This document shows positions 4,073 through 60,688 of a stretch of DNA of 64,000 nucleotides, in pieces; position 1 is the first letter of the stretch, and each line of letters begins with the position of its first letter. Under the pieces are notes generated by a model, which was given only the letters and a program-made list of their open reading frames with translations, did no database searches and was not told the origin of the DNA. The position numbers were made by a program, and so were the translations under genes. The stretch is from Candidatus Palauibacter sp. (GTDB taxonomy: Bacteria > Gemmatimonadota > Gemmatimonadetes > Palauibacterales > Palauibacteraceae), in NCBI RefSeq assembly GCF_965197445.1, contig NZ_CBDANE010000005.1, positions 139,877-203,876 on the forward strand, written 5' to 3'.

Positions 4073-4926
4073 CGGAGCCTCAATCCGCCGGCGACTACGA
4101 TGATCGGACGACGGCGGCGGTCAAGTCCGTGTTGGTCGAGATCGGCCAGGTCCTCGGCAGCTTCAGGGGCAAGTTTGCAGTTATCGGCGGGGCTGTTCCC
4201 TGGCTGTTGCTGAGCGAAGCCGACATGCCCCATATCGGAACCCTCGATGTGGACCTCGGTCTCGACGCCTCCGCCCTGGGCGACGGCGAATACGTTCGAC
4301 TTGTCGAAGCCCTGCAGACACACGGCTACCAGCAACGGGAGAGTCTGCGGCGTTTCCAGCTCGTCCGCACCGTACCCACCAGGGATGGGGGACCCGACAT
4401 CGACGTAGTCGTCGACTTCCTGATGCCGCGCGACGCCGAGATTGTAAGGAACAGGCCGCCGCTCATCAGCCAGTTTGCCGTCCAGCGAGCCGACGGGGCC
4501 GACCTGGCGCTCAGATTCTATCAGATGGCCGCCATCGAAGGAGATATGCCCGATGGGGGCAGGAATCTCGTTCGTATCGCCGTTGCGTCGATTCCAGCCC
4601 TCCTGGCCATGAAAGGCTACGCCATCGCCAATCGGTTCAAACGCAAGGACGCCTATGACATCTACTATTCGATCCGGAATTTTCCGGATGGGATGGACGC
4701 ACTTGTAGAAGCAACCAGACCTCTTCTTGACGTACCATCGGCACGGCGAGGCTACTGTTTGATCGCCGACAAGTTCCGTGACGTCGAAGACTTTGGACCG
4801 ACGAGCGTCAGGCGGTTCGTGGAGGAAGCCGACCTGCTCGGCGACCGCACCGCGGATCAATGGCAGCAAGACGCCTTCGGACAGGTTGACGCATGGCTCA
4901 GAGAACTGGGCCTGAGGGTTACATGA
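4054..4926 (+). CDS. Nucleotidyltransferase, AbiEii/AbiGii-like (pol-beta superfamily)
   Basis: IGGAVPWLLLSEADMPHIGTLDVDLGLD matches the pol-beta pattern of GG/GS, a ~14-residue spacer, then DxD. The gene is translationally coupled to the upstream wHTH protein. Confidence 0.65.
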   Translation: MLSVAVTEPQSAGDYDDRTTAAVKSVLVEIGQVLGSFRGKFAVIGGAVPWLLLSEADMPHIGTLDVDLGLDASALGDGEYVRLVEALQTHGYQQRESLRRFQLVRTVPTRDGGPDIDVVVDFLMPRDAEIVRNRPPLISQFAVQRADGADLALRFYQMAAIEGDMPDGGRNLVRIAVASIPALLAMKGYAIANRFKRKDAYDIYYSIRNFPDGMDALVEATRPLLDVPSARRGYCLIADKFRDVEDFGPTSVRRFVEEADLLGDRTADQWQQDAFGQVDAWLRELGLRVT

Positions 4927-5529: not shown

Positions 5530-5927
5530 GTGCCTCCCTGAAGGTTCTCCTCTGAAATCTGGATCAGGTTGCCGCACGAATCGTCGAAAACTGCGACAGT
5601 AACACTCCCGAGGTCTGGTGGCGGCTGCACGAATCGCACGCCTTTTGCCGTGAGACGCTCGTGCTCGGCTTCGATGTCATCGACTGCGAAGGAGGCACTG
5701 GGGATCCCGTCCTCCATAAGCGCAGTCTTGAACGGACGGACTGCGGGGTGGCCATCGGGCTCGAGCAGCAACTCCGTCCCCTCGGGAGCTTCCGGGGATA
5801 CCACGGTGATCCAGGCGTGATCTCCCATGGGGATGTTGTGCTTTACCCGAAAGCCGAGCGTCTCCGTGTAGAAACGAAGCGCCTTCTGTTGGTCGTCCAC
5901 GAAGACGCTGGTCAGGTGGATTCTCAT
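5526..5927 (-). CDS. VOC family protein (glyoxalase/bleomycin-resistance/dioxygenase fold)
   Basis: Typical VOC N-terminus VFVDDQQKALRFYTETLGFRV and a C-terminal half ASFAVDDIEAEHERLTAKGVRFVQPP...GNLIQI. Confidence 0.85.
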   Translation of the reverse strand: MRIHLTSVFVDDQQKALRFYTETLGFRVKHNIPMGDHAWITVVSPEAPEGTELLLEPDGHPAVRPFKTALMEDGIPSASFAVDDIEAEHERLTAKGVRFVQPPPDLGSVTVAVFDDSCGNLIQISEENLQGGT

Positions 5928-6235
5928 TTCCTTACGCCCTCATCCGTTGAGTGTGAAGTGTCCTCGTCTGTCGAGGTGGGCCACCGTTCCCCGATTGCCT
6001 TCAGCGGGGCGCCCTCGAACCAGTGGAGCTTCGACCTCCCCTCGCGCCTCGTGCGGATGAGCCCGGCGGCTTCCAGGACGTCCAGGTGTTGCGAGATCGC
6101 TTGCCGCGAGGAGTTGATCCCGTGTTTCATGGTCAGGCGCGCACAGAGTTCGAAGAGCGATTGGCCCGACCGATCGACGAGTTCATCCAGGATGGCCCGC
6201 CTGGTTCGGTCAGAGATCGCGCGATAAACGTCCAC
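5924..6235 (-). CDS. ArsR/SmtB family transcriptional regulator
   Basis: VYRAISDRTRRAILDELVDRSGQSLFELCARL...SRQAISQHLDVLEAAGLIRTRREGRSKLHWF is a canonical ArsR HTH. Start set at the in-frame GTG (VDVYRAI). The longer track ORF runs into the upstream repeat. Confidence 0.8.
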   Translation of the reverse strand: MDVYRAISDRTRRAILDELVDRSGQSLFELCARLTMKHGINSSRQAISQHLDVLEAAGLIRTRREGRSKLHWFEGAPLKAIGERWPTSTDEDTSHSTDEGVRK

Positions 6236-6237
6236 AT

Positions 6238-6300
6238 GCCAGCCTAAGGCAAGTGTCCACTTGCATGCCACGGCTTGATGATTATACAAGCGTGGACTTG
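6238..6300. promoter_or_regulatory. Putative ArsR operator/promoter with two direct repeats
   Basis: GTCCACTTGCATGCCA ... GTGGACTTGCATGCCA, about 30 bp apart. They flank TTGATGATTATACAAG, immediately upstream of the arsR-like gene. Confidence 0.4.
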
Positions 6301-6374
6301 CATGCCAACTCCTTCGGGTCGGTGATCGCCGCGAAGCTCCACCTGCTGGACATGCTGCTCGCCGCGGGCCAGCG

Positions 6375-6490
6375 CCGCTCACGATCGCGTCAGCCTCCGG
6401 AACCTGAACAATGCGAGCCACTGGTCGAAGGTGAGGGCGCGGGGCGGCCCGGAAGGATCGAACCTGAGATCTCGACGCAGCCGGCGAGCA
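6375..6490. repeat. 115-bp copy of the 3' end of the erm-like methyltransferase gene (third copy)
   Basis: About 90% identical to 12235-12350 and 17352-17465 (ACGATCGCGTCAGCCTCCGGAACCTGAACAATGCGAGCCACTGGTCGAAGGTGAG...GGAAGGATCGAACCTGAGATCTCGACTCAGCCGG). Similarity ends at 6490. Confidence 0.8.
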
Positions 6491-6494
6491 ACCT

Positions 6495-6532
6495 GTAGTT
6501 GACATTATGGAGACGATTCACGCAGTTTGTCA
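6495..6532. promoter_or_regulatory. Inverted repeat plus -35-like box upstream of the XRE-ImmA gene
   Basis: GTTGACA...(23 nt)...TGTCAAC, containing TTGACA. Confidence 0.35.
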
Positions 6533-6562
6533 ACCATCGTTTACGCGAAGAGAGGGGACGGC

Positions 6563-7642
6563 ATGTTTGGAAAACGACTACGGCTCGCCCGTAAACGCGC
6601 CGGCCTTTCCATGCGGGCGCTGGCCGAGCGGATGGATCCGAAAATCACCGCTCAGGCCATCAGCAAATACGAGGCGGGGAAGATGATGCCGTCTTCGGCC
6701 GTCCTGGTCGGTCTCGGGCAGGCTCTCGATGTGTCGCTGGACTTCCTCATGAGCTCCCAGGTCGAGGTCCTCGACGGCCTTGAGTTCCGGAAGCACTCCA
6801 GCACCTCCGCCCGGGATCGCGCCAAGGCCGAAGCCGTGCTGATCGACAACCTCGAGCGATATCTGACCATCGAGGAAGTCCTCGGTATTCCACCTGCGAG
6901 CGACCGTTTTGAAGGCCATCGGTACGACGGCGTTGCCGATGTCGAAGAGATCGATGACAGGGCCGATGAACTCCGCAACGCGTGGGACCTCGGCCTGGAT
7001 CCCGTGCCCAGCCTGTGCGCCCTCCTCGAGGAGAAGGGGATAAAGGTGATCGAAGACGATCTCCCCGAGCGCATCAACGGGCTGGCCTGCCGAGTCCTGC
7101 GAGAGGGCAAGCCGGTCGCCGACGCCGTCCTCGTATCGAGTCGGACCAACGTGGAGCGGAAACGATCCACCCTGGCCCACGAACTCGCGCACAGGATCAT
7201 CCGTTCCACCGGCAACCCGGCCATCAAGCTGGAAGCGGCCATGAACCGTTTCGCAGGCGCCTTCCTTGTCCCGGGCCAACATCTCATTCAAGAAGCCGGG
7301 GAAGGCCGCCGCCGCATCACCTATCATGAAATCGTCCGCCTCAAGCACATGTACGGCGTGTCAGCGGCGGCCATGCTGGTACGCCTTGGTCAAGTCGGCG
7401 TGCTGCCTCGTGCCGCGGTCCAGCGCGCGTTTCGAACCTTCGCCCGCTCCTGGCGCAAGTCGGAACCGGAACCCATTCACGGCAACCAAGGGTTCGCGGC
7501 GTTCGAGAAGCCTCGGCGCTTCAAGGGCCTCGTCTTGCGCGCCGTCGGCGAAGAGCTGATCTCGCCGGTTCGGGCGGCCACTCTCCTTAATGAATCCCTC
7601 GACGCGGTCGAGCAGCAGATCACCGGTCCGATCCACCAGTGA
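6563..7642 (+). CDS. Fused XRE-family HTH and ImmA/IrrE-family (DUF955) zinc metallopeptidase regulator
   Basis: N-terminal HTH_XRE (RLRLARKRAGLSMRALAERMDPKITAQAISKYEAGKMMP). The peptidase domain carries the HEXXH motif HELAHRI and the downstream ImmA-type segment AGAFLVP. Confidence 0.8.
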   Translation: MFGKRLRLARKRAGLSMRALAERMDPKITAQAISKYEAGKMMPSSAVLVGLGQALDVSLDFLMSSQVEVLDGLEFRKHSSTSARDRAKAEAVLIDNLERYLTIEEVLGIPPASDRFEGHRYDGVADVEEIDDRADELRNAWDLGLDPVPSLCALLEEKGIKVIEDDLPERINGLACRVLREGKPVADAVLVSSRTNVERKRSTLAHELAHRIIRSTGNPAIKLEAAMNRFAGAFLVPGQHLIQEAGEGRRRITYHEIVRLKHMYGVSAAAMLVRLGQVGVLPRAAVQRAFRTFARSWRKSEPEPIHGNQGFAAFEKPRRFKGLVLRAVGEELISPVRAATLLNESLDAVEQQITGPIHQ

Positions 7643-7861
7643 CGCGTGTCACTGTCAACGACGCTTCCTGCCTGATCGACCTCCGCAAGTTGGCTCGCCG
7701 TTCTACGAGCTGCCTGAACCCGCTCGCTCCGGAACACAAGGTCATCCGGGCAACCCTCCGAGCCTATTTCACACTCTACTTCACAAACGAGACACCCTGC
7801 GGTATGATTCCCTGGCGAGCCACCGCATAGCCACGCCGTTCATCGACAAACGAGCCATCAC

Positions 7862-8671
7862 GTGAATGCTGCCGACACGCCTCTGACCGGGCCGCCCCCG
7901 CCCGAGGTACCGCTGACTGACCCGCCGCTCGTGCGGGTCATCGCCCAGGTGCGCTTTCCGCTCATCGCGTCGTTGGAGAAGCGGGAGTTCATCGCGTCAT
8001 TTCAGGAGGCCATTCGGGAGTTCTACCCGGTGCTGCGTCCAGAGGAGGGACGCAGCGTCGTCCTGGGCTCACAGGGAGCGGTGGACACACGTTCGAACAC
8101 CTTATGGCGCTTCAACGAAGCGAGAGGGGCATGGCGTGTCACACTGGCACCCGACTTCCTCGCGCTGGAGACCACGAAATACACGAGCCGTGAAGACTTC
8201 ATGGAGCGCTTGAGGCTGGTCTTGGAAGCACTCAAGGAGCACGTCGATCCGCAGGTATTGGATCGCCTCGGCGTGCGTTACATCGATCGCGTGTCCGGGG
8301 AGAACCTGAGCGCTCTTCCCCAGCTCGTTCGCCCGGAAGTGGCGGGCATTCTGGGATCCCCACTCGCCGCACGTGCTCACCGCGCCGTCTCGGAAAACGT
8401 GTTCATTCTGCCCGGGAACGCGGGTCAGATTACCGCCCGCTGGGGGCTGCTGGCGCCGCGAAGCACGATTGACCCCGGGGCGCTGGACGCTATCGACGAG
8501 CCCAGCTGGATCCTTGATACCGACGCCTTCCAGTCATTTCAGACAGGCAGCCGGCGGCTCGATGTCGACTCGGCGGTCGAGCAGGCGCGAGGCTTCGCCG
8601 AACGCATCTACAGCATCTTCCGCTGGGCGGTAACGAATGAGTTTCTGCGACGGTACGGAGGTGACCCATGA
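7862..8671 (+). CDS. Conserved hypothetical protein, TIGR04255-like
   Basis: VRVIAQVRFPLIASLE...LWRFNEARGAWRVTLAPDFLALETTKY matches my recollection of TIGR04255. There is no catalytic motif, and the name is not verified. Confidence 0.5.
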   Translation: MNAADTPLTGPPPPEVPLTDPPLVRVIAQVRFPLIASLEKREFIASFQEAIREFYPVLRPEEGRSVVLGSQGAVDTRSNTLWRFNEARGAWRVTLAPDFLALETTKYTSREDFMERLRLVLEALKEHVDPQVLDRLGVRYIDRVSGENLSALPQLVRPEVAGILGSPLAARAHRAVSENVFILPGNAGQITARWGLLAPRSTIDPGALDAIDEPSWILDTDAFQSFQTGSRRLDVDSAVEQARGFAERIYSIFRWAVTNEFLRRYGGDP

Positions 8672-9381
8672 CCCTTGAATCCCTGCTACGCGAGTCGGCC
8701 GTCGGTGACGGAACGACATCCTTTTCCGGTCGCGCTGGCATCCGGGATCGTGCCTCGCTGTCGGTGATCATGGTAAGCGGTGCGTTGTCGATCGCCGGCA
8801 CGTCGTCCGCAGAGCCTACGACAATCTGGGGGGCACCGTACGTACACGAATCCGATACGACCGCTGGCGGACCAAGCCGCGACGCGGTGGCGACACAGAT
8901 GGAGAGCGAGACCGAGGCCACCCGTAAGGCCGTCTCTGAACTGCGTCGAATCTCTGGCCTGACTTGGGAACAGCTCGCCGGGCTGTTCGGGGTATCGCGT
9001 CGCAGCGTCCACTTCTGGGCCAGCGGGAAACCGCTGAACGCCGGCAACCACCAGCGGCTCATGCGTGTGCTGGATGTTGTCCGGGATGCCGACCGTGGCA
9101 CGGCACGCAGCACGCGTGCGGCTCTGCTCGATGCCCGTGCGGGTACGACTCCGTTCGAAATGTTGGCGGACCAGCAGTTTCGGGAGGCATATTTGGCTCT
9201 TGGTCGAGGGCGCACGCGCCTCGTGCCGGCGCTAACCCCGCTCAGTGCAGCGGCGCAGACGGCGCGTAAGCCCCTCCCGCCCGACGAGCTCTACGACGCG
9301 AAGAGCGACCGTGTACACCAGGAACCGGGGCGTGCACGCGCCGCTCGAACCGCAAGGGGCCAGCGGCGTGGGCGCGGTTGA
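8668..9381 (+). CDS. HTH (XRE-like) domain protein. Start overlaps the upstream stop (ATGA).
   Basis: LRRISGLTWEQLAGLFGVSRRSVHFWASGKPLNAGNHQRLMRVLDVV is an HTH_XRE-like segment. The N-terminal ~85 aa and the C-terminal Arg-rich tail are unassigned. Confidence 0.55.
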   Translation: MTLESLLRESAVGDGTTSFSGRAGIRDRASLSVIMVSGALSIAGTSSAEPTTIWGAPYVHESDTTAGGPSRDAVATQMESETEATRKAVSELRRISGLTWEQLAGLFGVSRRSVHFWASGKPLNAGNHQRLMRVLDVVRDADRGTARSTRAALLDARAGTTPFEMLADQQFREAYLALGRGRTRLVPALTPLSAAAQTARKPLPPDELYDAKSDRVHQEPGRARAARTARGQRRGRG

Positions 9382-10213
9382 AAGTGCCGGCGGTGAGCAG
9401 GTCGACGAGAGAATCGCGACTTGGCGTCAGGGCGACTGCGTCGTCGAGGACGACTGGTTTCTGTATCGGACAAGCGCGGAAAACCCGCTGACCGACGCCG
9501 GCAAAGCGGCGGTCGTTGAAGGAGCCGAGAACGCCGAGTCGTCCGTGCGCGGCTTCGCGGTCCTCACGCAGACCTGCGACCTGGTCCGAAGCTGCATTGA
9601 TCGCCCGTTCGCCGAGGTCAGCCCGCTGGTCGACGTGGATGATCGGGTGCTCCGCGAGATCGAGCGCGGGCGAAGGCCAAACTACGGCTTCATCCCGGGA
9701 GTGGCCGACCGCCGCCTCGTGGCAGAACTCGACCGAGTGATGACGGTCGAGAAGGCGGTCGTGGCAGGTTGGGAGCGGATCGAGGGATGCCGGACGGACG
9801 AGGAGATGCGTCGCTTCTCCCTCGCACTGGCCCGGAAGCGATCGAGGACGGCGTTCCCCGACGACTTTGTCGTGTTCGCCAGGCCGTTGATGGACCGGAT
9901 GTCGGAGAGACACGACAGGCAGAGCGATGAGGGGCGGGCCCTCCGCTCGCTCCGCGAAATCCGAGTTAGAGCGGCCCCATCGTGGGACGCCGATGCCGTG
10001 GAATTGATGTTCTGGTTCATCCGGAATGACGACGAGCCAGCATTCGAGACCGAAGACTGGGAGCACTGCCTGACAGCTCTGCCTCAGCCGCATTCGACAT
10101 CGGGGCGCTTCGTCCGTGTGGATGGCGTGGTCCTAACTCTGGATGACCTGACCGCCCGCGACTACGTCGAGAGCGACCCGCTCGATCTGGACCACCTGTC
10201 GACGCGGGGGTAG
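9368..10213 (+). CDS. Hypothetical protein with no recognisable domain. Its GTG start overlaps the stop of the upstream HTH gene.
   Basis: Intact ~280-aa ORF in a single frame, translationally coupled to the upstream gene. Acidic segments and a conserved-looking LTQTCDLVRSC motif are present. Confidence 0.45.
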   Translation: MGAVESAGGEQVDERIATWRQGDCVVEDDWFLYRTSAENPLTDAGKAAVVEGAENAESSVRGFAVLTQTCDLVRSCIDRPFAEVSPLVDVDDRVLREIERGRRPNYGFIPGVADRRLVAELDRVMTVEKAVVAGWERIEGCRTDEEMRRFSLALARKRSRTAFPDDFVVFARPLMDRMSERHDRQSDEGRALRSLREIRVRAAPSWDADAVELMFWFIRNDDEPAFETEDWEHCLTALPQPHSTSGRFVRVDGVVLTLDDLTARDYVESDPLDLDHLSTRG

Positions 10214-10371
10214 TAGGCACAGATCCCACTCCCCAACACCGCATCGGAACTCGCCGGCAGGTCAGATGAGGATGGACACGCCCCCCCGCTTGCCCCCCGA
10301 CTTGGCCCCAATAGGCTTCCCCTCGAGACCACACCTGCCCATCGCCACCTGAGCCGGACGTGATCGAAGCC

Positions 10372-10506
10372 ATGACGTCCCGCCCGTCTTCCGCCGCCCT
10401 CCTCCTGTGCAGCCTGCTGCTGACGGCCTGCGAGGTTCTACCGCCGGAACAGGCCGAGAACTTGGACGATGTCTTGCCGGATTCACGCCATCTCAAGCAC
10501 ACCTGA
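10372..10506 (+). CDS. Small putative lipoprotein (44 aa)
   Basis: MTSRPSSAALLLCSLLLTACEV is a signal peptide with a lipobox (LLTAC). It is below the ORF-track size cutoff. Confidence 0.3.
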   Translation: MTSRPSSAALLLCSLLLTACEVLPPEQAENLDDVLPDSRHLKHT

Positions 10507-10619
10507 TAGGCGTGAGGTCGGTGCTTCACCAACTCCACCCGGGCCCTCTCTCCCGCCGGCTCCGATCTCCGCCAACCGCATCGCCGCTCGAATGCTGGCA
10601 GGATTTGTCCGCGGGCTCC

Positions 10620-11697
10620 CTAGAAGCGCAGCAGTGCCGCCGCCCAATGGAACCCGGCGCCAAATGCGGTAAGCAGGACCAGGTCACCGGGCTTGATCCG
10701 CCCCTGATCCCGGGCCTCCCACAAGGCCAGGGGCACGGACGCCGAGCCTGTGTTGCCATACTTGTGGACGTTGACGAAGACCCGTTCATCGGGGAGGTTC
10801 AGCCGTTTCCTGACCGCATCCAGGATCCGCAGGTTGGCCTGATGCGGCACGACGAGCGCTACGTCGTCGATGGAGACACCGGCCTTCTCCAGCACCTGGT
10901 GGGACGCCGCACTCATGCGGCTGACGGCCTCGCGGAATACCTCCCGTCCCCGCATGACGACATGTTTGTGGAGCCCTTGCTCCACCCGCTCGACGGTGGT
11001 GGGCACGCGCGTGCCGCCCGCCTCCACCCCGAGAATGTGACTCTTGCTGCCGTCCGTTCCCGCCGTAGCGGCCACGATTTCGACCGCGCCCGGGTCCGGT
11101 CCGACGACCGCCGCGCCTGCCGCGTCGCCGAAGAGTACACAGGTGTTGCGATCCTCCCAGTCCATGAGCCGGGTGAGGAGCTCCACGCCGATCACGAGCA
11201 CCCGGCGGCCGTCCGCGAGGGCCCGAGAGCGGGCGATGTCCAGTGCCAGCACGAACCCCGCGCAGCCGCTGCCGCCCAGGTCGTAGCACGGGATGTGGCC
11301 GACGCCGAGACGAGTCTGGACGTACGCCGCCGTATCGGGGATGAAGACCTCGGGCGTGTCGGTCGCAAGGACGATCTCGTCGATATCCGCAGGCTCGAAG
11401 GCGCCGTCGGCCAGAGCTGCCCGGGCTGCGGCCAGCGCCAGATCGGCCGTACTCTCTTCATCCCCTGCAATTCGGCGCGTGTGTATGCCTGTGCGCGTCA
11501 CGATCCATTCGTCCGAGGTGTCGACGTACTCCGTCCATTCGTCGTTCGTCATGACGCGCTCGGGCAGGTAGACGCCGAGGCCCAACAGGCCGATGGGGTG
11601 CGGGCTTCTGGTGCCTGGCTGGTCCACTTCGTCCTCGCCCTGGTGAGTGACCGCGCGGGTGTGGGGGATGCCTTTCCGGTTCGGATTGTAAGGCATT
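10620..11697 (-). CDS. fabH: 3-oxoacyl-ACP synthase III (KAS III / FabH family)
   Basis: IGLLGLGVYLPERVMTNDEW is the FabH N-terminus. Active-site region CYDLGGSGCAGFVLAL. C-terminal VVPHQANLRILDAVRKRLNLP...NVHKYGNTGSASVPLAL carries His and Asn of the Cys-His-Asn triad. The true start is uncertain because of a 40-aa N-terminal extension. Confidence 0.85.
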
Positions 11698-11921
11698 TGG
11701 TGGCCGCTTACGCGGAACCTCGTCGGAGTCCGATGGCCTCGCATGCCTGATACCTGACGGGATGAACCGCACGAGGGGCACATGTTCGAACAGGCACATA
11801 GACTTGGAGGGTTTCGCCGCCAGCCGGATTCCTGACACCTTGAGATGGCGCATCGACTCACTTCCGTGATGCGCGGCAGGAGGCCCGGACTGGAGCGTGG
11901 AGACGGCACTGGTCGCCTTCT

Positions 11922-12101
11922 CTACACCACCGCATGCCGCGGCGTGACTTGCTCGGCGATCTCGCGACCCGCCTCGATCGCCGTCCGGCGAAGCTCCCAG
12001 GTCTTCTGAAGGTTCAACCACAGTTGCGGCGTCGTCCCGAAGTACCTGGCCAACCGCAACGCCGTATCAGCGCTCACGCCGCGCTGGCCGTTGAGGATCA
12101 T
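11922..12101 (-). pseudogene. higA-type antitoxin fragment (C-terminal half only)
   Basis: The reverse strand translates to MILNGQRGVSADTALRLARYFGTTPQLWLNLQKTWELRRTAIEAG. This matches the second half of the HigA HTH, as in the intact higA at 16550-16840. No N-terminal half and no higB are present. Confidence 0.6.
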
Positions 12102-12237
12102 GGTTACCCGGGTGCACCGGCCTCATGCCGTTCCTCGCGTTCATGTCACACGCCTCTCAATGATAATCCACGACCTCGACCTCGCATGGCCCGTCGTCAC
12201 TCCAACGGAAGCTAGTGCTCCGATGCGCCATCGGCGC

Positions 12238-13500
12238 TTACGATCGCAGCAGCCTCCGGAACCTGAACAATGCGAGCCACTGGCCGAAAGTGAGGCCGCT
12301 GGGTGGTCCGGAAGGATCGAACCTGAGATCTCGGCTCAGCGGGTAGACTTGTGTTCGCGTGAATTCGGATCGCAGACACCGCCTGATCGAGCGGCCGTCG
12401 CGGCCGAAGGAACTCTTGATGAAGCGCCGGTAGTCACGGCCTGTAATCGGTCCACAAGCGGTCTGGTTCGACGGGCGAGCCAGAGCGCGACGGCGACCGG
12501 TCGCACCCACGCCACCGCCAGGCGTCAAAGGCCAGCCCGATCGACCTCGCCGCGGGCTATCCCCAGCTGCTGTCAGACGCGTCGATGCCACCTGTGTCGC
12601 CTGTGCTTGGCGGCCTCGGCTCAATCCGGCACCGTGCCTCTGAGCCGTCAGAGCGCGCCAAGTCCACGAGATCTGACTCGCCCGTTCTGTCGGAACCGAC
12701 CGCATCTGGTCAGGCGGAAGGAGGTCCAGGAGTGATCGCGGCCACGCTCTCGATCGTCGTCTGGTTCGTTGCCGCATGGCTCGCCAGCAGGCGGAGGAGC
12801 CTCTCGGAGTTCGGGATCGAGCACGGCGGGGTCCCCCGCGCAGATGGGTGCTGATCCCAACCGCCCGGTGGATCCTCGACCCAGGGGGGACACTTGGTGG
12901 ACCGCGTTCGGCCGACTTGAACGAGTTCTTAGACGGGAGTTAGCCGCCTTGGAATCGGTCCACAAGCAGTCTGGTCGACGCCGGGAGGGGGATCGAAGTC
13001 GGTACGGCAAAAGCGCCGCACGATCTCGATCTGCCACCACGGCTTGAGCAGCAGCGAGGACAGGGTCTCCCGGGAACAGGGACTGCCGGCAAACCGTTCG
13101 GCCGCTTCACGCTGGATCACGAGCCAGGCGTCCTGCGGCGGAGAACCTGCCTGGACAAGCCGCCGGACGATGGCGGCAGTCCGATTGAACGGAATGTTCC
13201 CCAGGACCTTGTAGGGGACATCGGGCAGCCGAAAACGCAGGAAGTCGGACCTGACGATCGTGACACGGTCGTCACTCGGGAAGCGCGTGCGAAGCGCCTC
13301 GGACAGCGCGCCGTCGAACTCTACCGCGACGACCTCACGGCATCGACGTGCCAGTTCTCGAGTGAGAATGCCACGGCCCGGCCCGATCTCGACGACCAGA
13401 TCGCTTCGTTTGACGGGAGCCTGAGCGATCAGGCCAGCCGCAAGCGAACCCTCGGCTGGATGAAACCATGTGAAGTCTTCGCCAGGACTAAGGAGGTGAA
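12238..13500 (-). pseudogene. Erm-like 23S rRNA (adenine-N6)-methyltransferase, copy 1. It is disrupted by a ~475-bp insertion and by replacement of its N-terminus.
   Basis: The C-terminal ~85 aa (12238-12500) and the central SAM/catalytic region (12976-13470: VVEIGPGRGILTRELARR, LGNIPFNRTAAIVRRL) are near-identical to the intact copy at 17353-18144. They are separated by inserted DNA at 12500-12975 and lie in different frames. Upstream of codon ~35 the sequence diverges from the intact copy and runs into IS-end repeats. Confidence 0.75.
12500..12975. mobile_element. ~475-bp insertion inside erm copy 1, flanked by a 22-bp direct repeat (AATCGGTCCACAAGCRGTCTGGT)
   Basis: Alignment of copy 1 against copy 2 (17540-17600) shows contiguous sequence in copy 2 where copy 1 carries 475 extra bp. 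The repeat occurs at 12459-12480 and 12949-12970. The insert contains a GGAAGGAGG RBS and a 44-codon TM-peptide ORF. Confidence 0.55.
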
Positions 13501-13559
13501 GACCGCAGCCTGACGCGCTGACCTCGGCGAGGCCGGGTGTCAGGTGATTACCGTTCTTG

Positions 13560-13660
13560 TACGCCCCGGCTTCGCCCGGAACCGGTGGACGACTCCGCCC
13601 GGAACCGGTGGACGCCTTGGCTCGGAATCGATGGACGACTTCGTCGGAATAGGCATATAC
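13560..13660. repeat. IS-end-like repeat cluster: an internal 23-bp tandem duplication plus a copy of the 880-940 element
   Basis: cggaaccggtggacgactccgcc|cggaaccggtggacgccttggctcggaatcgatggacgacttcgtcggaataggca. The minus-strand reading DEVVHRFR matches the C-terminal residues of the transposase fragment at 506-560. Confidence 0.55.
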
Positions 13661-13929
13661 GCCTTTAATTCCATGTCCCATCTACATGCAATAAGACCCC
13701 TGGCAACACCATGTGCTGACTCTTCACGGAGTTGCATCGAGAACATCATCTATCCCCCTCCAACGAATTCACAGGTGGCGTTGTCCAATATCCCAGGTTC
13801 TGCTGAACATCCAGACCGTCTACGTACACACTTGCTGTATTGCAGATCGGTGCCTCATGGCCATTCGGGTAAACACGGACAGAATCCCCGTTGGTCCACG
13901 CCTTGATCTCCGATGGCGCATGCTCACCC

Positions 13930-15145
13930 AACTTCACGTCCAGCACAGCGATTGCGGATGACTCGAAGTCCTCGCGAGGTGGACCTGCTGGGGCGTGAGC
14001 AGGCCGATGCCGCCGTGCCGGTGTTCGGTGTTGTAACTGGAAGAACTCCCGGCAGAAGTCCTTCGCCTCCTCGATGCAACCGAACCGGCCGCCGGGTGGT
14101 ACTTGACGGTCTTGAAGTGGCCTCCGAGTAGGGGTTGTCGTTCGACTGCGTGTCGGCCAGGAGCTGCGCCGTGCACTTGGCCGTCATCCCCTGTCCGAGT
14201 GCAGCGTGAGCACCCGGGGATTGAGACACGTCTCGCCAACCAGGTGTCCGGAGGCCGGCGGTCTCGCGCTCCGCCACCAGCCATCCGGTGGCGTAGCGGC
14301 TGAAGATGTCCGAATGACGTAGAGATAGAAGTACCGCCACTTCTCCGGCCCGAGGAGCCGCGTGTCCCAGGGACCACACTCGTCGATCTCGGGCTTCGGG
14401 TGGTTCGGGTGGCTGCGCTGGGCCCGGCGCTCCCGGACCGCCCGGTTCTCGGCCAGGACGCGGTACATCGTCCGCTCCGAACACAGATGGACGCCCTCGT
14501 CCAGCAGCGTCGCGTACACTTCCGGGAGCGCGGTCCGCGAAGCGCGGCGAGCACAGCACGCCGAAGACCTCCGTGCGCTCCGCTTCGCCCAGGGCCCGGG
14601 CGGGAGACGGTAGAACGTGGCGCGCGCGACCCCGAGGGTCGCACGCCGCGCGTACGTGCCCGGCCAGATCCCCGGCCGCGCAAGAGCGCTTCCCGTCCCC
14701 GGGGCTCACGCCCAGCAGCCCCGCAACTTTTCCCTGGACATCGATGATGATGCGCGCCTTGCGGAGTCGCGCATCTCCTGCCTCGGGCCGCGCTTCTTCG
14801 CCAGCCCCCTGAGCGACCCCTCCCGCGCCGCCTTCCGCCACGACGACAGGTGCGAACTGTACAGCCCCTCGCGCCGAAGCAACTCTCCGATCTCGCCCGG
14901 CGTCGGCAGGCGTCCGCCTGCTCCACGATCGAAAGCTTGTATGCCGCCGTGAAACGCCGCCGCGTCGCCTTCGCCGACACCTCCGGATCCGGCCCCGCTG
15001 CCGCGCTTCGCTTGCCCTCCCCCGAAGGGAGGGGCGTTCCGTTCAACTTCATTCCTTTTCCTCGTTCCATCCTTCATCTCCCTGCCTCGCCCTACTCTAA
15101 TCTCTTTCTCCCTTCGTGTCTCGCGCGTTGGCAGAGAGGGCATCG
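13930..15145 (-). mobile_element. Degenerate IS3-family insertion sequence, with orfA and orfB carrying multiple frameshifts
   Basis: orfA-like frame: RRRFTAAYKLSIVEQADA...GEIGELLRREGLYSSHLSSWRKAAREGSL. orfB-like frames: MYATLLDEGVHLCSERTMYRVLAENRAVRERR, YFYLYVI...IFSRYATGWLVAERETA, LTLHSDRG, YNTEHRHGGIGLLTPQQVHLA. The pieces are spread over at least three frames. Confidence 0.75.
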
Positions 15146-15838
15146 ATGTGAATCGTCACTCCGGGCAGTCAGATTGGAGCCGATGAGCTTCTGGTTCGGC
15201 GGCGTCAGTACCTCGCCAACGTAGACTGTCGAGTCCATCTCGACATCCGTCACCCAGAGCCCAATCCATCGCGAACGCTCCGGCGAGACACTCGGTCCCG
15301 TAGCAATCCTGAATCGGTATTCCTTCCCTACCTCCCACTCGTAACTGTGCTGAATCTGACCGCAAGAATGACACCCGAAATACGAGTGTCTCGTATCCCT
15401 GTTGATCCTGCCGTTTCTCGTTCGCCAGTCCTGTGCATGCTGAATCACTAGATGGATCCCCCGTCCCAGACCCCGATGACCTCCAATCGTCCCATCAGTC
15501 TGAAACCCGGCAAATCCAGGCAACCTCCGAGGTCCCACAGCGAACTGCATCGAGTAGTCGTGGCGCTGACGCTTCTCATGCAGACTCGCTGGCGGAGCTA
15601 CCACAGGTCGAAACGTCCACTCCAGGTTCTCGTGATACCCGCCGCGAAAGGCATAAGTCGTGTACACGTTCGACGGACCTCCCGTCGTCGCAGGTGGTCC
15701 TAGAGGCGGTGGTGGAGGCGGAGGCGGAATAATCGGAGGTAGTGGTGGTGGCGGAGGTGGCAACGGCCCCTCCGAAACCACCATCTCATCTCCACATGCT
15801 CCCATGAAAGCCAGCAGTGGTATTAGCAGCTTCCTCAT
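15092..15838 (-). CDS. Putative lipoprotein with a proline-rich linker; hypothetical
   Basis: MRKLLIPLLAFMGAC (signal peptide plus lipobox), then PPPPPPLPPIIPPPPPPPP, then a ~180-aa domain. The C-terminus abuts or overlaps the IS3 element and may be truncated by it. Confidence 0.5.
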   Translation of the reverse strand: MRKLLIPLLAFMGACGDEMVVSEGPLPPPPPPLPPIIPPPPPPPPLGPPATTGGPSNVYTTYAFRGGYHENLEWTFRPVVAPPASLHEKRQRHDYSMQFAVGPRRLPGFAGFQTDGTIGGHRGLGRGIHLVIQHAQDWRTRNGRINRDTRHSYFGCHSCGQIQHSYEWEVGKEYRFRIATGPSVSPERSRWIGLWVTDVEMDSTVYVGEVLTPPNQKLIGSNLTARSDDSHRCPLCQRARHEGRKRLE

Positions 15839-16297
15839 ATCTCCATACCGCCTAACTAACTGTCCGTATCGTGATCTCCGAGACTTGGACGCCCGGCCTC
15901 CGGGCTCTTGCCCAAGAACTGCTCCAGATCCCGGATTCGGAGTTCGGACCTCGCTCACCCTCCTCTGCTCGGCGAGAATCTACGGGGTCCGCTCCACGAA
16001 ACGCCGCGCCAGAGCCCCATCGAGTTCGGGTGTACCCCGTCACCTTGATCATGTGCCCGGGCGTCTCTCACGCGAGAGGACAGATTCAGGTCTCGAGTCT
16101 GCTGAGTGCGGCGAGTTCGGGTGGCAGGCTTCCGCACAATTCATTCCCCGCCAGCAAGAGGCGTCACTCCCAACGGGGCCCACCTACTATGGGAATAGTA
16201 AATGCGAGTACGCAAGACTCATTGACGCGCTCGCCAAGGGAGTTCAGAGTCTGCTTAGAACGATGCCCTCGTGGTGATACGTTACACTTCCCACGCA

Positions 16298-16549
16298 ATG
16301 ATTCTTGGCTTTCGCCACCGAGGCCTCGAGCGTTTGTTCGAGAAGGGAGACCGGAGCCGGATTCCCCCGGACTTGATCGCCAAGGTCGAGGACATGAACC
16401 TGCCGGGTCTTCGGCTCCACCCGCTGAAAGGCGACCGCGCAGGATATTGGGCCGTGAAGGTCTCCGCCAACTGGCGCGTGGTCTTCCGCTTCGACGGGCG
16501 CGATGTCAGGGACGTGGACTTGACCGACTACCATTGGGAAACCCGCGAC
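16298..16549 (+). CDS. higB: HigB toxin (RelE/ParE superfamily). There is no stop codon before higA.
   Basis: [79 protein letters not shown] is a canonical HigB. Translation continues in frame through W (TGG at 16535) into higA. Confidence 0.75.
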
Positions 16550-16840
16550 ATGCCGATGAAGAACCCGCCGCATCCGGGCCTGTCCGTGCGCCATGATTGT
16601 CTGGAGCCCTTGGGGCTCACCGTGACGGAGGCGGCGCGGAGGCTGGGTGTCAGCCGAAAGCAGCTTTCCGAACTCGTCAACGGCCGTTCGGGCATCTCTC
16701 CCGAAATGGCGATCCGCCTGGACAAGGCGTTTGGAGGCGGGGCTGCAACCTGGTATCGCCTTCAGTCGGCCTACGACCTTGCGCAGGCCATGAAGAATGC
16801 CGGCCGGATCGACGTGGAGCGAATACCGACTCCCGTTTGA
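16550..16840 (+). CDS. higA: HigA antitoxin (XRE-type HTH)
   Basis: [77 protein letters not shown]. Confidence 0.8.
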
Positions 16841-16979
16841 TGCTCGATTCGGACGTTACGGCAACAGGACCAAAGCACCAGACGACACAAGCGGGCCGTC
16901 CTCCGTCTGGCGGAGACGGCTTCTCTCCGCGAAACTCCCGATGCAGCAGATCGTGCAGTCCATCATCGAGAGGACGTAG

Positions 16980-17342
16980 CGTGCAAAACGTTCAGGGATT
17001 CGGCGGGTTCTTCTTTCGGGCAAAGGACCCGAAAGGACTTGCGAAATGGTATCAGGATCACCTTGGCATCAATCCTGCTCCGACGAACATGGAGATGGCG
17101 CCTGGGTGACCGAGTCCGGGGTCACGGTTTTCTCACCCTTCGCTGCTGACACGGACTATTTCGCAGCGGACAAGACTTTCATGCTGAACTTCCGCGTGGC
17201 CGACCTGGACGCGATGATCACACAACTGAAGTCCGCGGATATCGAGGTCAGCCACGAAAGCGAGATGGAGGGTATCGGTCGCTTCGCCCGCATCCACGAC
17301 CCCGAAGGAAACGCGATCGAGCTTTGGGAACCCGCGTCGTGA
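16980..17342 (+). pseudogene. VOC/glyoxalase family gene with a frameshift near 17105
   Basis: Frame 1 gives VQNVQGFGGFFFRAKDPKGLAKWYQDHLGI and then a stop. Frame 2 continues with FMLNFRVADLDAMITQLKSADIEV...GIGRFARIHDPEGNAIELWEP, a typical VOC C-terminal half. This could be a real frameshift or a sequencing error. Confidence 0.55.
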
Positions 17343-17352
17343 GATTCGGAGC

Positions 17353-18144
17353 TTACGATCGCGTCAGCCTCCGGAACCTGAACAATCCGAGCCACTGGTC
17401 GAAGGTGAGGCCGCGGAGTGGTCCGGAAGGATCGAACCTGAGATCTCGACTCAGCCGGTAGATTTGCGTTCGCGTGAATTCGGATCGCAGACACCACCTG
17501 ATCGAGCGGCCGTCGCGACCGAAGCAACTCTGGATGAAGCGCCGGTAGTCCACGGCCTGGAATCGGTCCACAAGCGGTCTGGTTCGACGGGCGAGCCAGA
17601 GCGCGACGGCGTCGACGCTGGGAGGGGGATCGAAGTCGGTACGGCGAAAGCGCCGCACGATCTCGATCTGCCACCACGGCTTGAGCAGCAGCGAGGACAG
17701 GGTCTCCCGGGAACAGGGACCGCCGGCAAACCGTTCGGCCGCTTCACGCTGGATCACAAGCCAGGCGTCCTGCGGCGGAGAATCGGCCTCGACAAGCCGC
17801 CGGACGATGGCGGCGGTCCGGTTGAACGGAATGTTCCCCAGGACCTTGTAGGGGACATCGGGCAGCCGAAAACGCAGGAAGTCGGACCTGACGATCGTGA
17901 CACGGTTGTCACTCAGGAAGCGCGTGCGGAGCGCCTCGGACAGCGCTCCGTCGAACTCTACCGCGACGACCTCACGGCATCGACGTGCCAGTTCTCGAGT
18001 GAGAATGCCACGGCCCGGCCCGATCTCGACGACCAGATCGCTTCGTTTGACGGGAGCCTGAGCGATCAGGCTAGCCGCAAGCGACCTGCTCCGGAGGAAG
18101 TGCTGCGAGAGGTCCGCACGCCTGGGTGTCCGATGCCTGGACAC
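17353..18144 (-). CDS. Erm-like 23S rRNA (adenine-N6)-dimethyltransferase, RsmA/Erm family (intact copy)
   Basis: N-terminal LSQHFL (the Erm/KsgA QNFL-type motif). SAM-binding motif VVEIGPGRGILTRELARR. Catalytic motif LGNIPFNRTAAIV (NxPY/F). Erm-like C-terminal domain. 263 aa with a GTG start. Confidence 0.8.
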   Translation of the reverse strand: MSRHRTPRRADLSQHFLRSRSLAASLIAQAPVKRSDLVVEIGPGRGILTRELARRCREVVAVEFDGALSEALRTRFLSDNRVTIVRSDFLRFRLPDVPYKVLGNIPFNRTAAIVRRLVEADSPPQDAWLVIQREAAERFAGGPCSRETLSSLLLKPWWQIEIVRRFRRTDFDPPPSVDAVALWLARRTRPLVDRFQAVDYRRFIQSCFGRDGRSIRWCLRSEFTRTQIYRLSRDLRFDPSGPLRGLTFDQWLGLFRFRRLTRS

Positions 18145-18751
18145 GACGAACCATCACGAACGTAGACATGGAGTCTCCTGCGCTGGACGAGCGAGATCGA
18201 AAGCCTTCGCATTACTACGTAGGCATCAGGCGTCTCACCCGCAACCGACTCCGGCGCGACTGATCAGCGTCCTCGCAGCCGAGTGGCGCGGCGAAGGTTC
18301 CCCGCTTACTGATTGGACCGAAACTCATGGGATTTATGCGGAGGGAGGGACATGCATCCTGACGCCCTCGATTCCCGGCTCGGGGCTGTTTGCGTGAACT
18401 TACAGCCCGTCGTTCGCCTCGTGCCCGGCGAGCCCCTTTGCGACGTCCTTGAGCGCATCGAGCGCCAAGACCCGGGCGCCGCGGCTGCGTGGCGCCGCAA
18501 GTACGGGAAGCCGGTCTCCTGGCTCCCCGAACGCGACGCCGGCGCCGTGAGTATCGAAATCGCCAGGGCCGTGAACGCCCGCGCCGACGCGCTCGCCCCT
18601 AGGCGGTAGCCGATCTGCGGGCACGAGAGTTGGAAAGCCGTCGTGAAACCACTCCAAGAAGTCTTCCGTTTGTAGTCTGACTCGCCCACCCTGTCGGAAC
18701 CGACTGCGCAGGTGAGGTGGTCAGGACACTCGCGGAAGGAGGTCAAGGAGT

Positions 18752-19359
18752 GAACCGCTACGACGCATATGACCCCTTTGCGCGTATCTACGATGGGCAC
18801 TGGGGGTTCTTCGCGACGAACGTGTGCCCGATCCTCGACCATCGCGAGGAAGAACGCTCCGGACGTGGAATTCGTCGTCCAGGACGCTCGGAGCATCGCC
18901 TTGCCTCGCAGCTTTTGGGCGGTTTTCTCGACCTTTGACAGCCTGAACCACGTGATGAGCCTGGGCGAACTGGAGCAGGTGTTTCAAGGTGTATTCGCCG
19001 TCCTGGAAGACGGCGGCTACTTCGTGTTCGACCTCAACATGGAAGAAGGTTACCGGTCCAGGTGGCGTGGTTCCTTCGCATATGTGGAGGGGGATCACGT
19101 CTGCGCGGGTCGATCTTCACATGATGCGAACGAGAGAATCGGAAGAGTCGATGTCACTCTGTTCGAACCGAAGGGTTCAGGATGGGAACGGACCGATTTC
19201 TCTCTGACTCAGCGCTGGTACGAAGAAAGTGAAATCAGGGAACGACTGCGAAGAGCCGGATTCGAAGAGTTGCAGTCTGTCGATGGGAACGAACCCATCG
19301 TAGAGGGCGGCGCGTCGCACGAAGGCAGGATGTTTTTCGTCGCGAGGAAGCCTTGGTGA
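18752..19359 (+). pseudogene. Class I SAM-dependent methyltransferase with an internal deletion removing motif I, plus a frameshift
   Basis: N-terminal NRYDAYDPFARIYDGHWGFFATNVCPILD is followed, after only ~8 residues and a frame change, by APDVEFVVQDARSIALP...FSTFDSLNHVMSLGELEQVFQGVFAVLEDGGYFVFDLN (post-motif-I regions). The GxGxG segment is absent. A strong RBS GGAAGGAGGTCAAGGAGTG lies upstream. Confidence 0.6.
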
Positions 19360-20048
19360 GGTATCCGGGTGCCGAGGCCGCGGCCGGACCAAGGGAGGCG
19401 AACCGGCGCGCTGGGACACAACCGCGGCGATTGCTTGGCAGAGTCGTGCGGTGGGGTGTGACCGCTGTCCTGCTTGCGGTGTTTCCCTTCATCCTCCTCG
19501 TCCGCGGAGGCGTCTTCGCCTACCAGCAATGGGGGCTCGGGGCATGGCCCTCGCTGGCCGTCTCGGCGGCCGCCACCGTGCTACTCCTGGCGTTCTACGC
19601 GTGGGCGGCAAGCCGGCGCCTGGGGGCAGGCAAGCGGCTCCGGAAGTTCACGATTCGGGTCGCGGCTCTTGCCGCCGCCGCGTTCGTGCTCTACTCGCTG
19701 CTGGTCATCGCGGGCGGCAACGTGAAATCGGAAGAGGTGCGAGCCGAGTACCTGGGTCTTCATCCGCTGTTGCGGATGGCCGTATCGGTCTTCGTCCTGG
19801 CCGACGCCGACGCCGTGATCACCGATGCGGCTCGCACACCCGAATTCTACGCTCGCGCGGGGCTCCCATCCAACGAGTCTTCACTACACCTCCGCCAGGA
19901 CGACGGATTCGTCCATGCGCTGGATCTTCGCACCATCAACCGGCCCGAATGGCGGAACCTCTTGGCCGAACTGGCGTTCCGGGCGATGGGCTTCCACACG
20001 CTCCGCCACGTGGGCACGGCCGACCATCTGCATGTGTCCCTGAGGTAG
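19353..20048 (+). CDS. Integral membrane protein, hypothetical
   Basis: Four predicted TM helices (VTAVLLAVFPFILLV, AATVLLLAFYAWAA, VAALAAAAFVLYSLLVIAGG, LLRMAVSVFVLA). Confidence 0.5.
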   Translation: MVRYPGAEAAAGPREANRRAGTQPRRLLGRVVRWGVTAVLLAVFPFILLVRGGVFAYQQWGLGAWPSLAVSAAATVLLLAFYAWAASRRLGAGKRLRKFTIRVAALAAAAFVLYSLLVIAGGNVKSEEVRAEYLGLHPLLRMAVSVFVLADADAVITDAARTPEFYARAGLPSNESSLHLRQDDGFVHALDLRTINRPEWRNLLAELAFRAMGFHTLRHVGTADHLHVSLR

Positions 20049-60493: not shown

Positions 60494-60688
60494 GGAGGCG
60501 AGGGTTCGGCGGGGGCGGTACTGGTGTACCCGGTGTGGACTCGACACCCGACCGGCGGGGTTCAATTCCCCGCGCCTCCACCTCTCCCTCAACGAGGGTT
60601 CGGCGGGGGCGGTACTGGTGTACCCGGTAAGGGCTTGACACTCGACCGGCGGGGTTCGATTCCCCGCGCCTCCACCTTCCCCTCGACG
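60494..60688 (+). repeat. Tandem repeat (~94-bp period, two full units plus a partial) of tRNA-like modules with canonical T-arm and acceptor sequences
   Basis: Each unit contains CGGGGTTC(A/G)ATTCCCCG (a perfect T stem-loop), then CGCCTCC-A-CC, plus a conserved GGTAC-TGGT-GTACC hairpin. Only unit 1 has a complementary 5' GGAGGCG acceptor strand and a 5-bp/7-nt anticodon-like hairpin (GGTGT-GGACTCG-ACACC). Unit 2 lacks both. Confidence 0.5.

Follow-up and report, generated by a model that had tools for sequence, protein, structure and literature searches.

What kind of gene occurs three times within a short distance in this bacterial chromosome, and how did the extra copies arise? The window analyzed here, i.e., the whole stretch of 64,000 nucleotides from Candidatus Palauibacter sp. 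(contig NZ_CBDANE010000005.1, positions 139,877 to 203,876), carries three copies of a gene resembling the Erm 23S rRNA methyltransferases, all in direct orientation: an intact gene (hereafter E1), a split copy (copy 2), and a 3'-end stub. The best explanation of the locus as a whole, to which we assign a probability of about 0.65, is a lineage-typical, probably regulated erm gene accompanied by recombination-scar copies in a hypervariable islet. The homology between E1 and the extra copies is far above chance, and the three copies are real. Their boundaries, obtained from self-comparison of the window and base-level alignment, are as follows:

17353-18144, minus strand: E1, the intact erm-family gene (open reading frame [ORF] of 263 amino acids with a GTG start; match to NF000499; AlphaFold2 model)
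12974-13447, minus strand: 5' block of copy 2 (E2a), corresponding to erm nucleotides 61-534 (codons 21-178), 97.0% identical to E1
12496-12973, minus strand: 478-bp insertion that splits copy 2; its initial 26 nt repeat erm nucleotides ~562-587, and homology to island DNA of relatives extends over the remainder
12231-12495, minus strand: 3' block of copy 2 (E2b), corresponding to erm nucleotides 534-799, 93.2% identical to E1, with the native post-stop hairpin flank kept
6368-6484, minus strand: 3'-end stub (E3), which covers the final ~35 codons and extends ~10 nt beyond them (108-117 bp, 88-93.5% identity)

An initial annotation of this DNA had likewise described one intact gene, one disrupted copy, and a 3'-end stub, all of which were confirmed by the self-comparison; together with the alignment, it also gave the exact repeat boundaries that the annotation had proposed to define, with corrected ends. 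Copy 2 had been placed at 12238-13500, with about 90% identity and a 475-bp insertion; the split copy stands, although its actual extent is 12231-13447, its identity 93-97%, and its insertion 478 bp. The stub and its neighbor arsR also stand, while the reported 115 bp at 6375-6490 become 108-117 bp at 6368-6484. As had been noted, the copies abut unrelated DNA, and both extra copies are degraded paralogous pieces.

The identity of the gene was evaluated against the curated cut-offs of NCBIfam, which are 212 bits for the family-wide Erm model NF000499 (“Erm broad”) and 171 bits for the ksgA model TIGR00755. E1 scored 233.4 bits on the former, above its cut-off, and 143 bits on the latter, below its cut-off; in addition, NF000499 was matched by 30 of the 30 diverse family members scanned, with the best E-value of any model among them. 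The N-terminal QHFL, S-adenosylmethionine (SAM)-binding GPGRGILT, and catalytic NIPF motifs that had been reported earlier were all located in E1 (QHFL at residues 14-17, EIGPGRGILT at 40-49, and NIPF at 104-107). Across the 30 members, the SAM-binding, acidic, and catalytic positions E40, G42, G44, G46, E63, D65, D88, F89, and P106 are invariant, and catalytic motif IV allows either N or S at residue 104 and either F or Y at residue 107. Among sequence matches in the Protein Data Bank (PDB), ErmE (6nvm), Erm(38), and ErmAM stood at the top, and their alignments covered the C-terminal domain as far as residues 256-261, whereas the alignments of E1 with KsgA/Dim1 entries ended near residues 188-222. 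The AlphaFold2 model of E1, built on 30 homologues (predicted local distance difference test [pLDDT] 89.4, predicted template modeling score [pTM] 0.85), displays a two-domain architecture with an Erm-type C-terminal helical domain. When this model was searched with Foldseek, ErmE was the best match (template modeling [TM] score 0.86/0.92, root-mean-square deviation [rmsd] 1.8 Å over 241 columns), followed by Erm38 and ErmC' (rmsd ~2.5 Å; TM 0.81/0.89 for ErmC'), whereas KsgA/Dim1 structures superposed at an rmsd of 3.4-5.7 Å (TM 0.67-0.77 for KsgA). In a neighbor-joining tree, the family was nested among the Erm classes, apart from Escherichia coli RsmA and an Enterococcus KsgA-like protein. 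Five independent computational lines thus support the prediction that E1 is of the Erm type rather than the KsgA type, its C-terminal domain included, and the hidden Markov model scores, PDB alignments, and superposition of the model on ErmE agree with the Erm-like C-terminal domain proposed in the initial annotation. That annotation had named placement within housekeeping KsgA/RsmA as the outcome that would speak against Erm, and the tree sets the family with the Erm classes instead. Two points weigh on the other side: the KsgA side of this tree consists of two sequences only, which makes it a weak test, and a separate rsmA in the same genome was not demonstrated.

E1 is a divergent chromosomal member of the Erm family that is at most 36% identical to the named classes, and automatic annotation already recognizes the family. 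Its identity is 26-35% to the named Erm classes (closest are ErmQ with 35.5%, Erm38 with 33.5%, and ErmE with 30.8%) and ~22% to KsgA. In the usual nomenclature, an amino acid identity of at least 80% is needed to assign an erm class. E1 reaches neither this level nor the cut-off of any class-specific Erm model, scoring far below them all (e.g., 163 vs 320 bits for erm_SHROVE and 102 vs 800 bits for Erm38). Because its identity to the named classes is well under 80%, E1, if functional, would be a new erm class. The mobile classes Erm(Q), Erm(42), Erm(46), Erm(B), and Erm(C) fall in the same “Erm broad” family with 26-35% identity to E1, although E1 itself is not on a plasmid, phage, or transposon. 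Closer in kind are ErmE of Saccharopolyspora erythraea and Erm(38) of Mycobacterium smegmatis (7f8a), actinobacterial 23S rRNA A2058 N6-methyltransferases with which E1 aligns over residues 5-256 and shares the two-domain fold (Rossmann plus C-terminal helical domain), the SAM-binding and (N/S)IP(F/Y) motifs, and a chromosomal location in a high-GC host. Nevertheless, they are just ~31-34% identical to E1, whose host is an uncultured member of the Gemmatimonadota. The most likely function of E1 would be N6-methylation of A2058 of 23S rRNA, which would protect the ribosome from macrolides, lincosamides, and streptogramin B (MLSB).

The conserved erm unit extends, by the cross-genome conservation profile, from ~-105 to ~10 nt past the stop, with a promoter-like element at one end and a terminator-like hairpin at the other. 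Such elements are what purifying selection on a gene would keep, and the unit is the functional gene, promoter to terminator, rather than a repeat-bounded cassette. The features upstream of and across the start of E1 are as follows:

18211-18244, minus strand: promoter-like element, TTGCGG-N17-TACGTAGTAAT, at which cross-genome conservation of the erm unit starts (~-100); putative promoter of E1
18174-18179, minus strand: Shine-Dalgarno sequence AGGAGA of the leader ORF, conserved across loci
18071-18169, minus strand: leader upstream ORF (uORF) of 32 codons (MSTFVMVRRVQASDTQACGPLAALPPEQVACG*), with ATG and Shine-Dalgarno sequence, conserved, overlapping the erm start out of frame
18126-18144, minus strand: start-codon hairpin in which GTGTCC (18144-18139) pairs with GGACAC (18131-18126), predicted by RNAalifold

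The erm start position is occupied by ATG instead of GTG in three relatives (loci L035, L036, and L039), and therefore this position is the true start codon. This GTG has little Shine-Dalgarno sequence of its own and is systematically miscalled in public gene sets for this erm family. About 25 clusters of homologues of ~202 amino acids that start with “MEFDGAL” (P0037-P0065) were considered as a recurrent N-terminal truncation, and this was rejected, as tblastn on the contigs recovered the full 263-codon GTG-start ORF; these clusters are a gene-caller artefact that starts at an internal GTG (V62).

There is good evidence that 18071-18169 is a translated leader. Its Shine-Dalgarno sequence and ATG (18169) lie ~25 nt upstream of the erm GTG, and the uORF runs 74 nt into erm to end at a CTAG near erm codon 24. 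The same arrangement recurs upstream of erm in L002 and L004-L082. A uORF with Shine-Dalgarno sequence and ATG over the erm start was found in 50 of 58 non-identical leaders, ranging from Palauibacter to Dehalococcoidia, compared to none of the 58 in a control frame. Upstream of the erm coding region, the ratio of synonymous to nonsynonymous changes was 35:31 in the uORF frame versus 5:40 and 3:40 in the other frames (counts taken from related sequences and hence not independent), and second codon positions of the uORF frame vary least. Neither Rfam (the region at E ≤ 1 and the whole window at the gathering score) nor the NCBIfam leader-peptide models matched the leader, no alternative RNA structure was identified at it, and the upstream regions of the other reference erm genes fetched showed no leader overlapping the start. 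A programmed frameshift that would carry ribosomes from the uORF ATG into the frame of erm was considered and is unlikely, given that there is no slippery site and that L035, L036, and L039 have ATG at the erm start. Taken together, the leader is supporting evidence for a predicted response of E1 to ribosome-targeting drugs, E1 is probably macrolide-responsive, and ribosomes that translate the leader probably tune its expression.

What the leader may sense is a more tentative matter. In 25 of the 27 leaders that fall outside the main Palauibacter clade, the uORF codons that lie over the erm start encode R-V-R, R-G-R, or R-A-R, and Arg-X-Arg is a macrolide/ketolide arrest motif; in ErmDL, it is R-L-R at residues 6-8, where arrest induces ErmD (PMC8298421). 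Also, RNAalifold predicted a 6-bp start-codon stem on 26 diverse sequences, and its in-register pairing was 76.5%, compared to 30-44% when the partner was slid. One could imagine a new macrolide sensor in which the nucleotides of the erm start codon themselves encode the arrest motif (R-x-R or RRVQ), and which is common to the Erm genes of Gemmatimonadota, Dehalococcoidia/SAR202, and some metagenome-assembled genomes (MAGs) of Proteobacteria. In such a sensor, a drug-bound ribosome would be arrested, or would drop its peptide of 8-9 residues, exactly on the hairpin-sequestered GTG, and in-place re-initiation (speculatively, after the arrest or peptidyl-tRNA drop-off) or a change of frame would switch on erm without alternative hairpins. 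The ErmDL-ErmD attenuator (leader MTHSMRLR..., arrest at Arg6-Leu7-Arg8) offers a precedent, as it likewise has a short leader ORF with a strong Shine-Dalgarno sequence of its own; relatives of the window's leader carry R-x-R at codons ~7-9 like ErmDL, and a predicted mRNA hairpin would occlude the erm initiation region here as well (PMC8298421). The leader of the window differs from it in overlapping the erm start out of frame, with the R-x-R codons of relatives exactly on the GTG and RRVQ in the clade of the window, and in having a single hairpin instead of alternative ones; ErmCL, at -120 to -60, does not overlap the start of erm(C) at all. Several observations weigh against the sensor. The clade of the window has no R-x-R over the erm start, its leaders reading R-V-Q (preceded by R, i.e., R-R-V-Q), R-V-H, or R-V-P; where the R-x-R motif does occur, it is inseparable from the nucleotide constraints of start codon and hairpin. 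Covariation in the hairpin is weak (the observed score is reached in 27 of 500 shuffles), its folding energy relative to shuffles is unremarkable for GC-rich RNA (mean z about -0.9), and arrest would place the ribosome right on the start codon of erm. We consider this sensor a possibility on the unlikely side.

The two extra copies lack what makes E1 a complete gene. Copy 2 (12231-13447) is without promoter, leader, and the first 20 codons, hence without QHFL, and in E2b a 1-nt deletion at erm nucleotide 594 shifts the frame of the 3' part, of which the 3' flank matches L006 and L022. The 250-amino-acid ORF called over it (12929-13681) is a miscall with a foreign N-terminus, as homology to erm ends at 13447; it is identical to P0110, an NCBI protein of “Candidatus Palauibacter sp.” The 478-bp insertion is 84% identical to L006 (11799-12315) and 83% identical to L004 (12835-12990), and neither terminal inverted repeats nor a target duplication were seen at its ends. 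A miniature inverted-repeat transposable element (MITE) or an insertion sequence (IS) was thus rejected as its source, the DNA being homologous to island DNA in L006 and L004. Of the earlier statement that the 5' end of copy 2 runs into IS-end repeats, what holds is that a decayed IS3-family element (~13924-15143, 79% identical to an intact copy in L073) and a dispersed repeat lie nearby, whereas homology to erm already stops at 13447. This short dispersed repeat, between the decayed IS3 and copy 2, occurs at 13564-13655 and again at 844-939 (81%), and contains a tandem “GTCCACCGGTTCCGGGCG” motif; in L025 it forms an inverted pair ~0.8 kb apart (18896-18968 and 19786-19857), and it may be the end of an unrecognized small mobile element. 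The stub lies upstream of arsR (an ArsR-family gene, 5924-6250). Its upstream junction is that found at L022 15798, where it leads into erm codon 20 (“...TGTCAACyACAGGTTG/sTCGC”, with the slash at the junction). Because this junction is identical to the XRE-ImmA/erm-codon-20 junction of L022, the stub would once have been a codon-20-start copy, which later lost ~620 bp between two CGGCT microhomologies.

The copies delimit two accessory blocks, with anchor genes upstream of E1:

18769-19359, plus strand: upstream anchor, class I SAM methyltransferase
19353-20048, plus strand: upstream anchor, ORF
13448-17345, no strand: accessory block A, between E1 and copy 2 (Pfam; IS3 homology to L073)
17046-17342, plus strand: VOC/glyoxalase fragment, block A (Pfam)
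16271-16840, plus strand: HigB-HigA, block A (Pfam)
15092-15958, minus strand: hypothetical gene, block A
~13924-15143, minus strand: decayed IS3, block A (homology to L073)
6485-12230, no strand: accessory block B, between copy 2 and the stub
11922-12101, minus strand: truncated second HigA copy, block B
10620-11642, minus strand: FabH, block B (TIGR00747, 360 bits vs a cut-off of 292)
7862-10213, plus strand: three genes of unassigned family, block B (one member of the region is of the TIGR04255 family)
6527-7642, plus strand: RmrA-like XRE helix-turn-helix (HTH) plus M78 peptidase, block B (PADLOC RmrA, 5e-43)

The cargo between the copies is of defense and toxin-antitoxin type (RosmerTA-like, HigBA, and the decayed IS3), with AbiE and Iet nearby, which suggests that the first ~20 kb of the window are a defense island. 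The XRE plus M78 peptidase gene followed by the TIGR04255-family protein (6527-8671) forms a predicted pair resembling RosmerTA. In block A, the HigB-like toxin and HigA-like HTH antitoxin domains read as one ORF of 189 amino acids; they are two overlapping genes in L006 and L045. Nearby in the window, an IetA-like AAA ATPase (PADLOC, 4e-73) was found at 1020-2009, and an AbiEi-like/AbiEii-like pair (weak Pfam matches) at 2951-4926.

The anchor genes recur upstream of erm in ~12 related genomes, while the immediate contexts among 43 genomes comprise 26 distinct upstream and 27 distinct downstream arrangements: the downstream neighbor of erm is FabH in L002 and L003 and the VOC/glyoxalase fragment in L004, L006, and L022, and ArsR and VOC lie 3-9 kb from erm in L018, L050, and others. 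The E1-VOC junction, right after the stop, is shared by L004 and L006 and, with an additional 93 bp, by L022, and represents a derived 3' junction. Copy 2, in turn, keeps the native 3' flank, with post-stop hairpin, HigA fragment, and FabH as in L006 (the FabH neighbor is also found in L002), and in L006 insert-like DNA is followed by a 3' erm stub. The window from 6484 to 10225 is 93.9% identical to L022 12062-15803. Decay of redundant erm copies is common in the lineage: two erm copies occur in each of three MAGs, an IS1182-like element is inserted in L022 at the CTAG of erm codons ~22-24, an IS630-like element sits at the same CTAG in L073 (with a second IS at codon ~232), and microhomology deletions within erm were found in L042, L065/L066, L071, L055, and L067.

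The shared junctions favor a reading of the two additional copies as recombination scars bordering a variable defense/toxin-antitoxin islet, and not as products of a mobile cassette. Mechanistically, new cargo would have entered repeatedly by recombination with erm itself as the homologous anchor, either as DNA carrying erm was taken in by Campbell-type insertion or as variants of the locus underwent unequal exchange. In each event, the upstream copy would stay whole and gain a new 3' neighbor, and the downstream copy would start at the truncation point of the donor, keep the old 3' neighbor, and remain in direct orientation. The redundant copies would then decay, copy 2 having lost promoter, leader, and 20 codons and acquired a frameshift along with 478 bp of island DNA, and the codon-20-start copy having been shortened to the stub by the ~620-bp microhomology deletion. 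Integration hotspots at tRNA genes and Campbell-type duplications likewise show an intact gene at the edge and direct-orientation 3' partial copies that delimit accessory blocks; the window differs from tRNA-hotspot islands in lacking a site-specific recombinase and a short att core, in its long (108-740 bp) and unequal repeats, and in its anchor, which is a protein-coding, resistance-type gene and not a tRNA. Two points stand against this scheme. The proposed Campbell-type order of events rests on shared junctions, and a breakpoint recurs at codon ~19-21 with at least three different flanks, which simple homologous recombination does not explain. A direct repeat shared by the promoter region (“CCGGAGTCGGTTGCGG”) and codons 17-22 (“CCGGAGCAGGTCGCTTGCGG”) was considered as the cause of the codon-20 breakpoint; it fits L076 (a deletion from ~-88 to codon 19), but not clearly copy 2 or the L022/stub junction. 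We also observed that a 20-nt stretch around erm codons 19-24 (window ~18084-18089) is a hotspot, with two different IS elements at its CTAG and at least three rearrangement junctions within ~5 nt of one another, all with CAGGT-like microhomology (L022 8419/10065 and 15798; L073 8724/10001; L076 973).

Three other explanations have to be weighed against a probably regulated gene with recombination-scar copies. According to the one that stays closest to the earlier suggestion of “repeated recombination or mobilisation” of a cassette, the erm unit would be a mobile cassette that inserted three times in the window and moves between genomes. The fairly sharp ends of the conserved unit (~-105 to ~10 nt past the stop), the 26-27 different immediate flank contexts among 43 genomes, the two copies in several MAGs, and the breakpoint that recurs at codon ~20 with CAGGT-like microhomology would all fit. 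However, the unit does not show the hallmarks of a cassette, transposon, or integrative element: at the ends of E1 there is neither an integrase nor a pair of transposases, and terminal repeats and a target duplication are likewise absent, no transposase consistently adjoins the unit in relatives, and there is no tRNA or integrase within reach of the erm locus, where the only transposase is the decayed IS3. Moreover, its ends are a promoter-like element and a terminator-like hairpin, as purifying selection would preserve, the upstream anchor genes recur in ~12 genomes, the partial copies begin at varied internal points rather than at cassette ends, and no relative above 35% identity was present in 72,556 plasmids or 50,697 phage records, every plasmid match to E1 (at ≤35% identity) being an annotated Erm gene. 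Recombination stands, as the junctions are common to related genomes, and mobilization is not supported; we regard such a cassette as improbable. A genomic island driven by a tRNA or integrase was rejected on the same absence of either within reach.

Alternatively, E1 might be a housekeeping 16S rRNA dimethyltransferase KsgA/RsmA, or a non-resistance paralogue, that merely resembles Erm. The two families are homologous, sharing fold, SAM chemistry, and the QxFL N-terminal motif, E1 still gains 143 bits on TIGR00755 and a TM of 0.67-0.77 with KsgA structures, and the erm gene is near-universal in the lineage. Yet E1 lies under the KsgA cut-off and over the Erm cut-off, and ErmE, Erm38, and ErmC' fit better in sequence and fold over both domains, with 26-35% identity to Erm classes against ~22% to KsgA. 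Furthermore, the family is dispensable, as its copies in relatives are often IS-disrupted, deleted, or duplicated, unlike a gene of an essential pathway, and E1 has a leader ORF of the erm-regulating kind, so that this alternative is quite doubtful. Finally, the repeated copies might be an artefact of MAG assembly, through chimeric joins or mis-collapsed strain variants. The source is indeed a MAG, the region is repeat-rich and strain-variable, and the exact intact protein is on record nowhere else; exact-sequence look-ups of the intact E1 and of the disrupted copy 2 protein returned no contigs. But the copies differ by 3-12% from one another with distinct lesions, so they are not duplicated reads, and independent assemblies contain the same junctions (erm-VOC in L004, L006, and L022, and XRE-ImmA/erm codon 20 in L022). 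L006 also has insert-like DNA, a 3' stub, a HigA fragment, and FabH, and the disrupted ORF was deposited identically at NCBI on a 1.78-Mb contig. An assembly artefact is thus very improbable.

The host is Candidatus Palauibacter (Gemmatimonadota), with a chromosome of sponge or marine type. Palauibacterales reach their highest abundance in sponges and in marine sediments, and their ecogenomic description gives macrolide efflux pumps, with Erm not among them (PMC10469786). In a large protein collection, the E1 protein has 781 relatives at E ≤ 1e-10, the closest of which are 80-94% identical and come from Gemmatimonadota MAGs, with two of them named “23S ribosomal RNA methyltransferase Erm” by NCBI. 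Among one-genome-per-species reference genomes, ~45 Palauibacter/Longimicrobiales genomes have the gene at 76-96% identity, and Dehalococcoidia/SAR202 and a few other MAGs have relatives at 48-63% identity. Elsewhere in the window, a 944-amino-acid ankyrin-repeat protein and a 963-amino-acid leucine-rich-repeat (LRR)/Big_2 protein are encoded at 34033-36867 and 40019-42910, respectively, with the internal repeats at 41709-42377 belonging to the LRR gene. Long ankyrin- and leucine-rich-repeat proteins are typical of sponge symbionts, and the two eukaryote-like proteins fit a host that lives as a sponge symbiont. ARAGORN called an 89-nt “tRNA-Thr” at 60494-60582, directly followed by a 96-bp direct repeat (60593-60688, 90.6%), and an 82-nt “tRNA-Phe” at 57223-57304; both fall under the Rfam tRNA gathering score, and they are doubtful tRNAs or a tRNA-like tandem repeat.

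For resistance surveillance, the initial annotation had considered an Erm-like gene in this lineage noteworthy. The Erm-like identity holds, whereas the novelty was overstated, as ~45 genomes carry the family and the NCBI pipeline labels members as Erm; chromosomal, in uncultured marine or sponge-symbiont hosts, and without a plasmid or phage link, the gene represents a low-risk background of modest surveillance value. For the biology of the lineage, Erm-type genes are a stable part of the Palauibacter gene pool, held in recombination-prone defense islands. Their repeated duplication and breakage argues that the selection which ribosome-targeting metabolites exert in sponge microbiomes fluctuates and is not constant. 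Of greater interest is the regulatory lead: an overlapping erm leader is conserved across phyla, and, if the macrolide sensor proved true, it would be a compact variant of translational attenuation.

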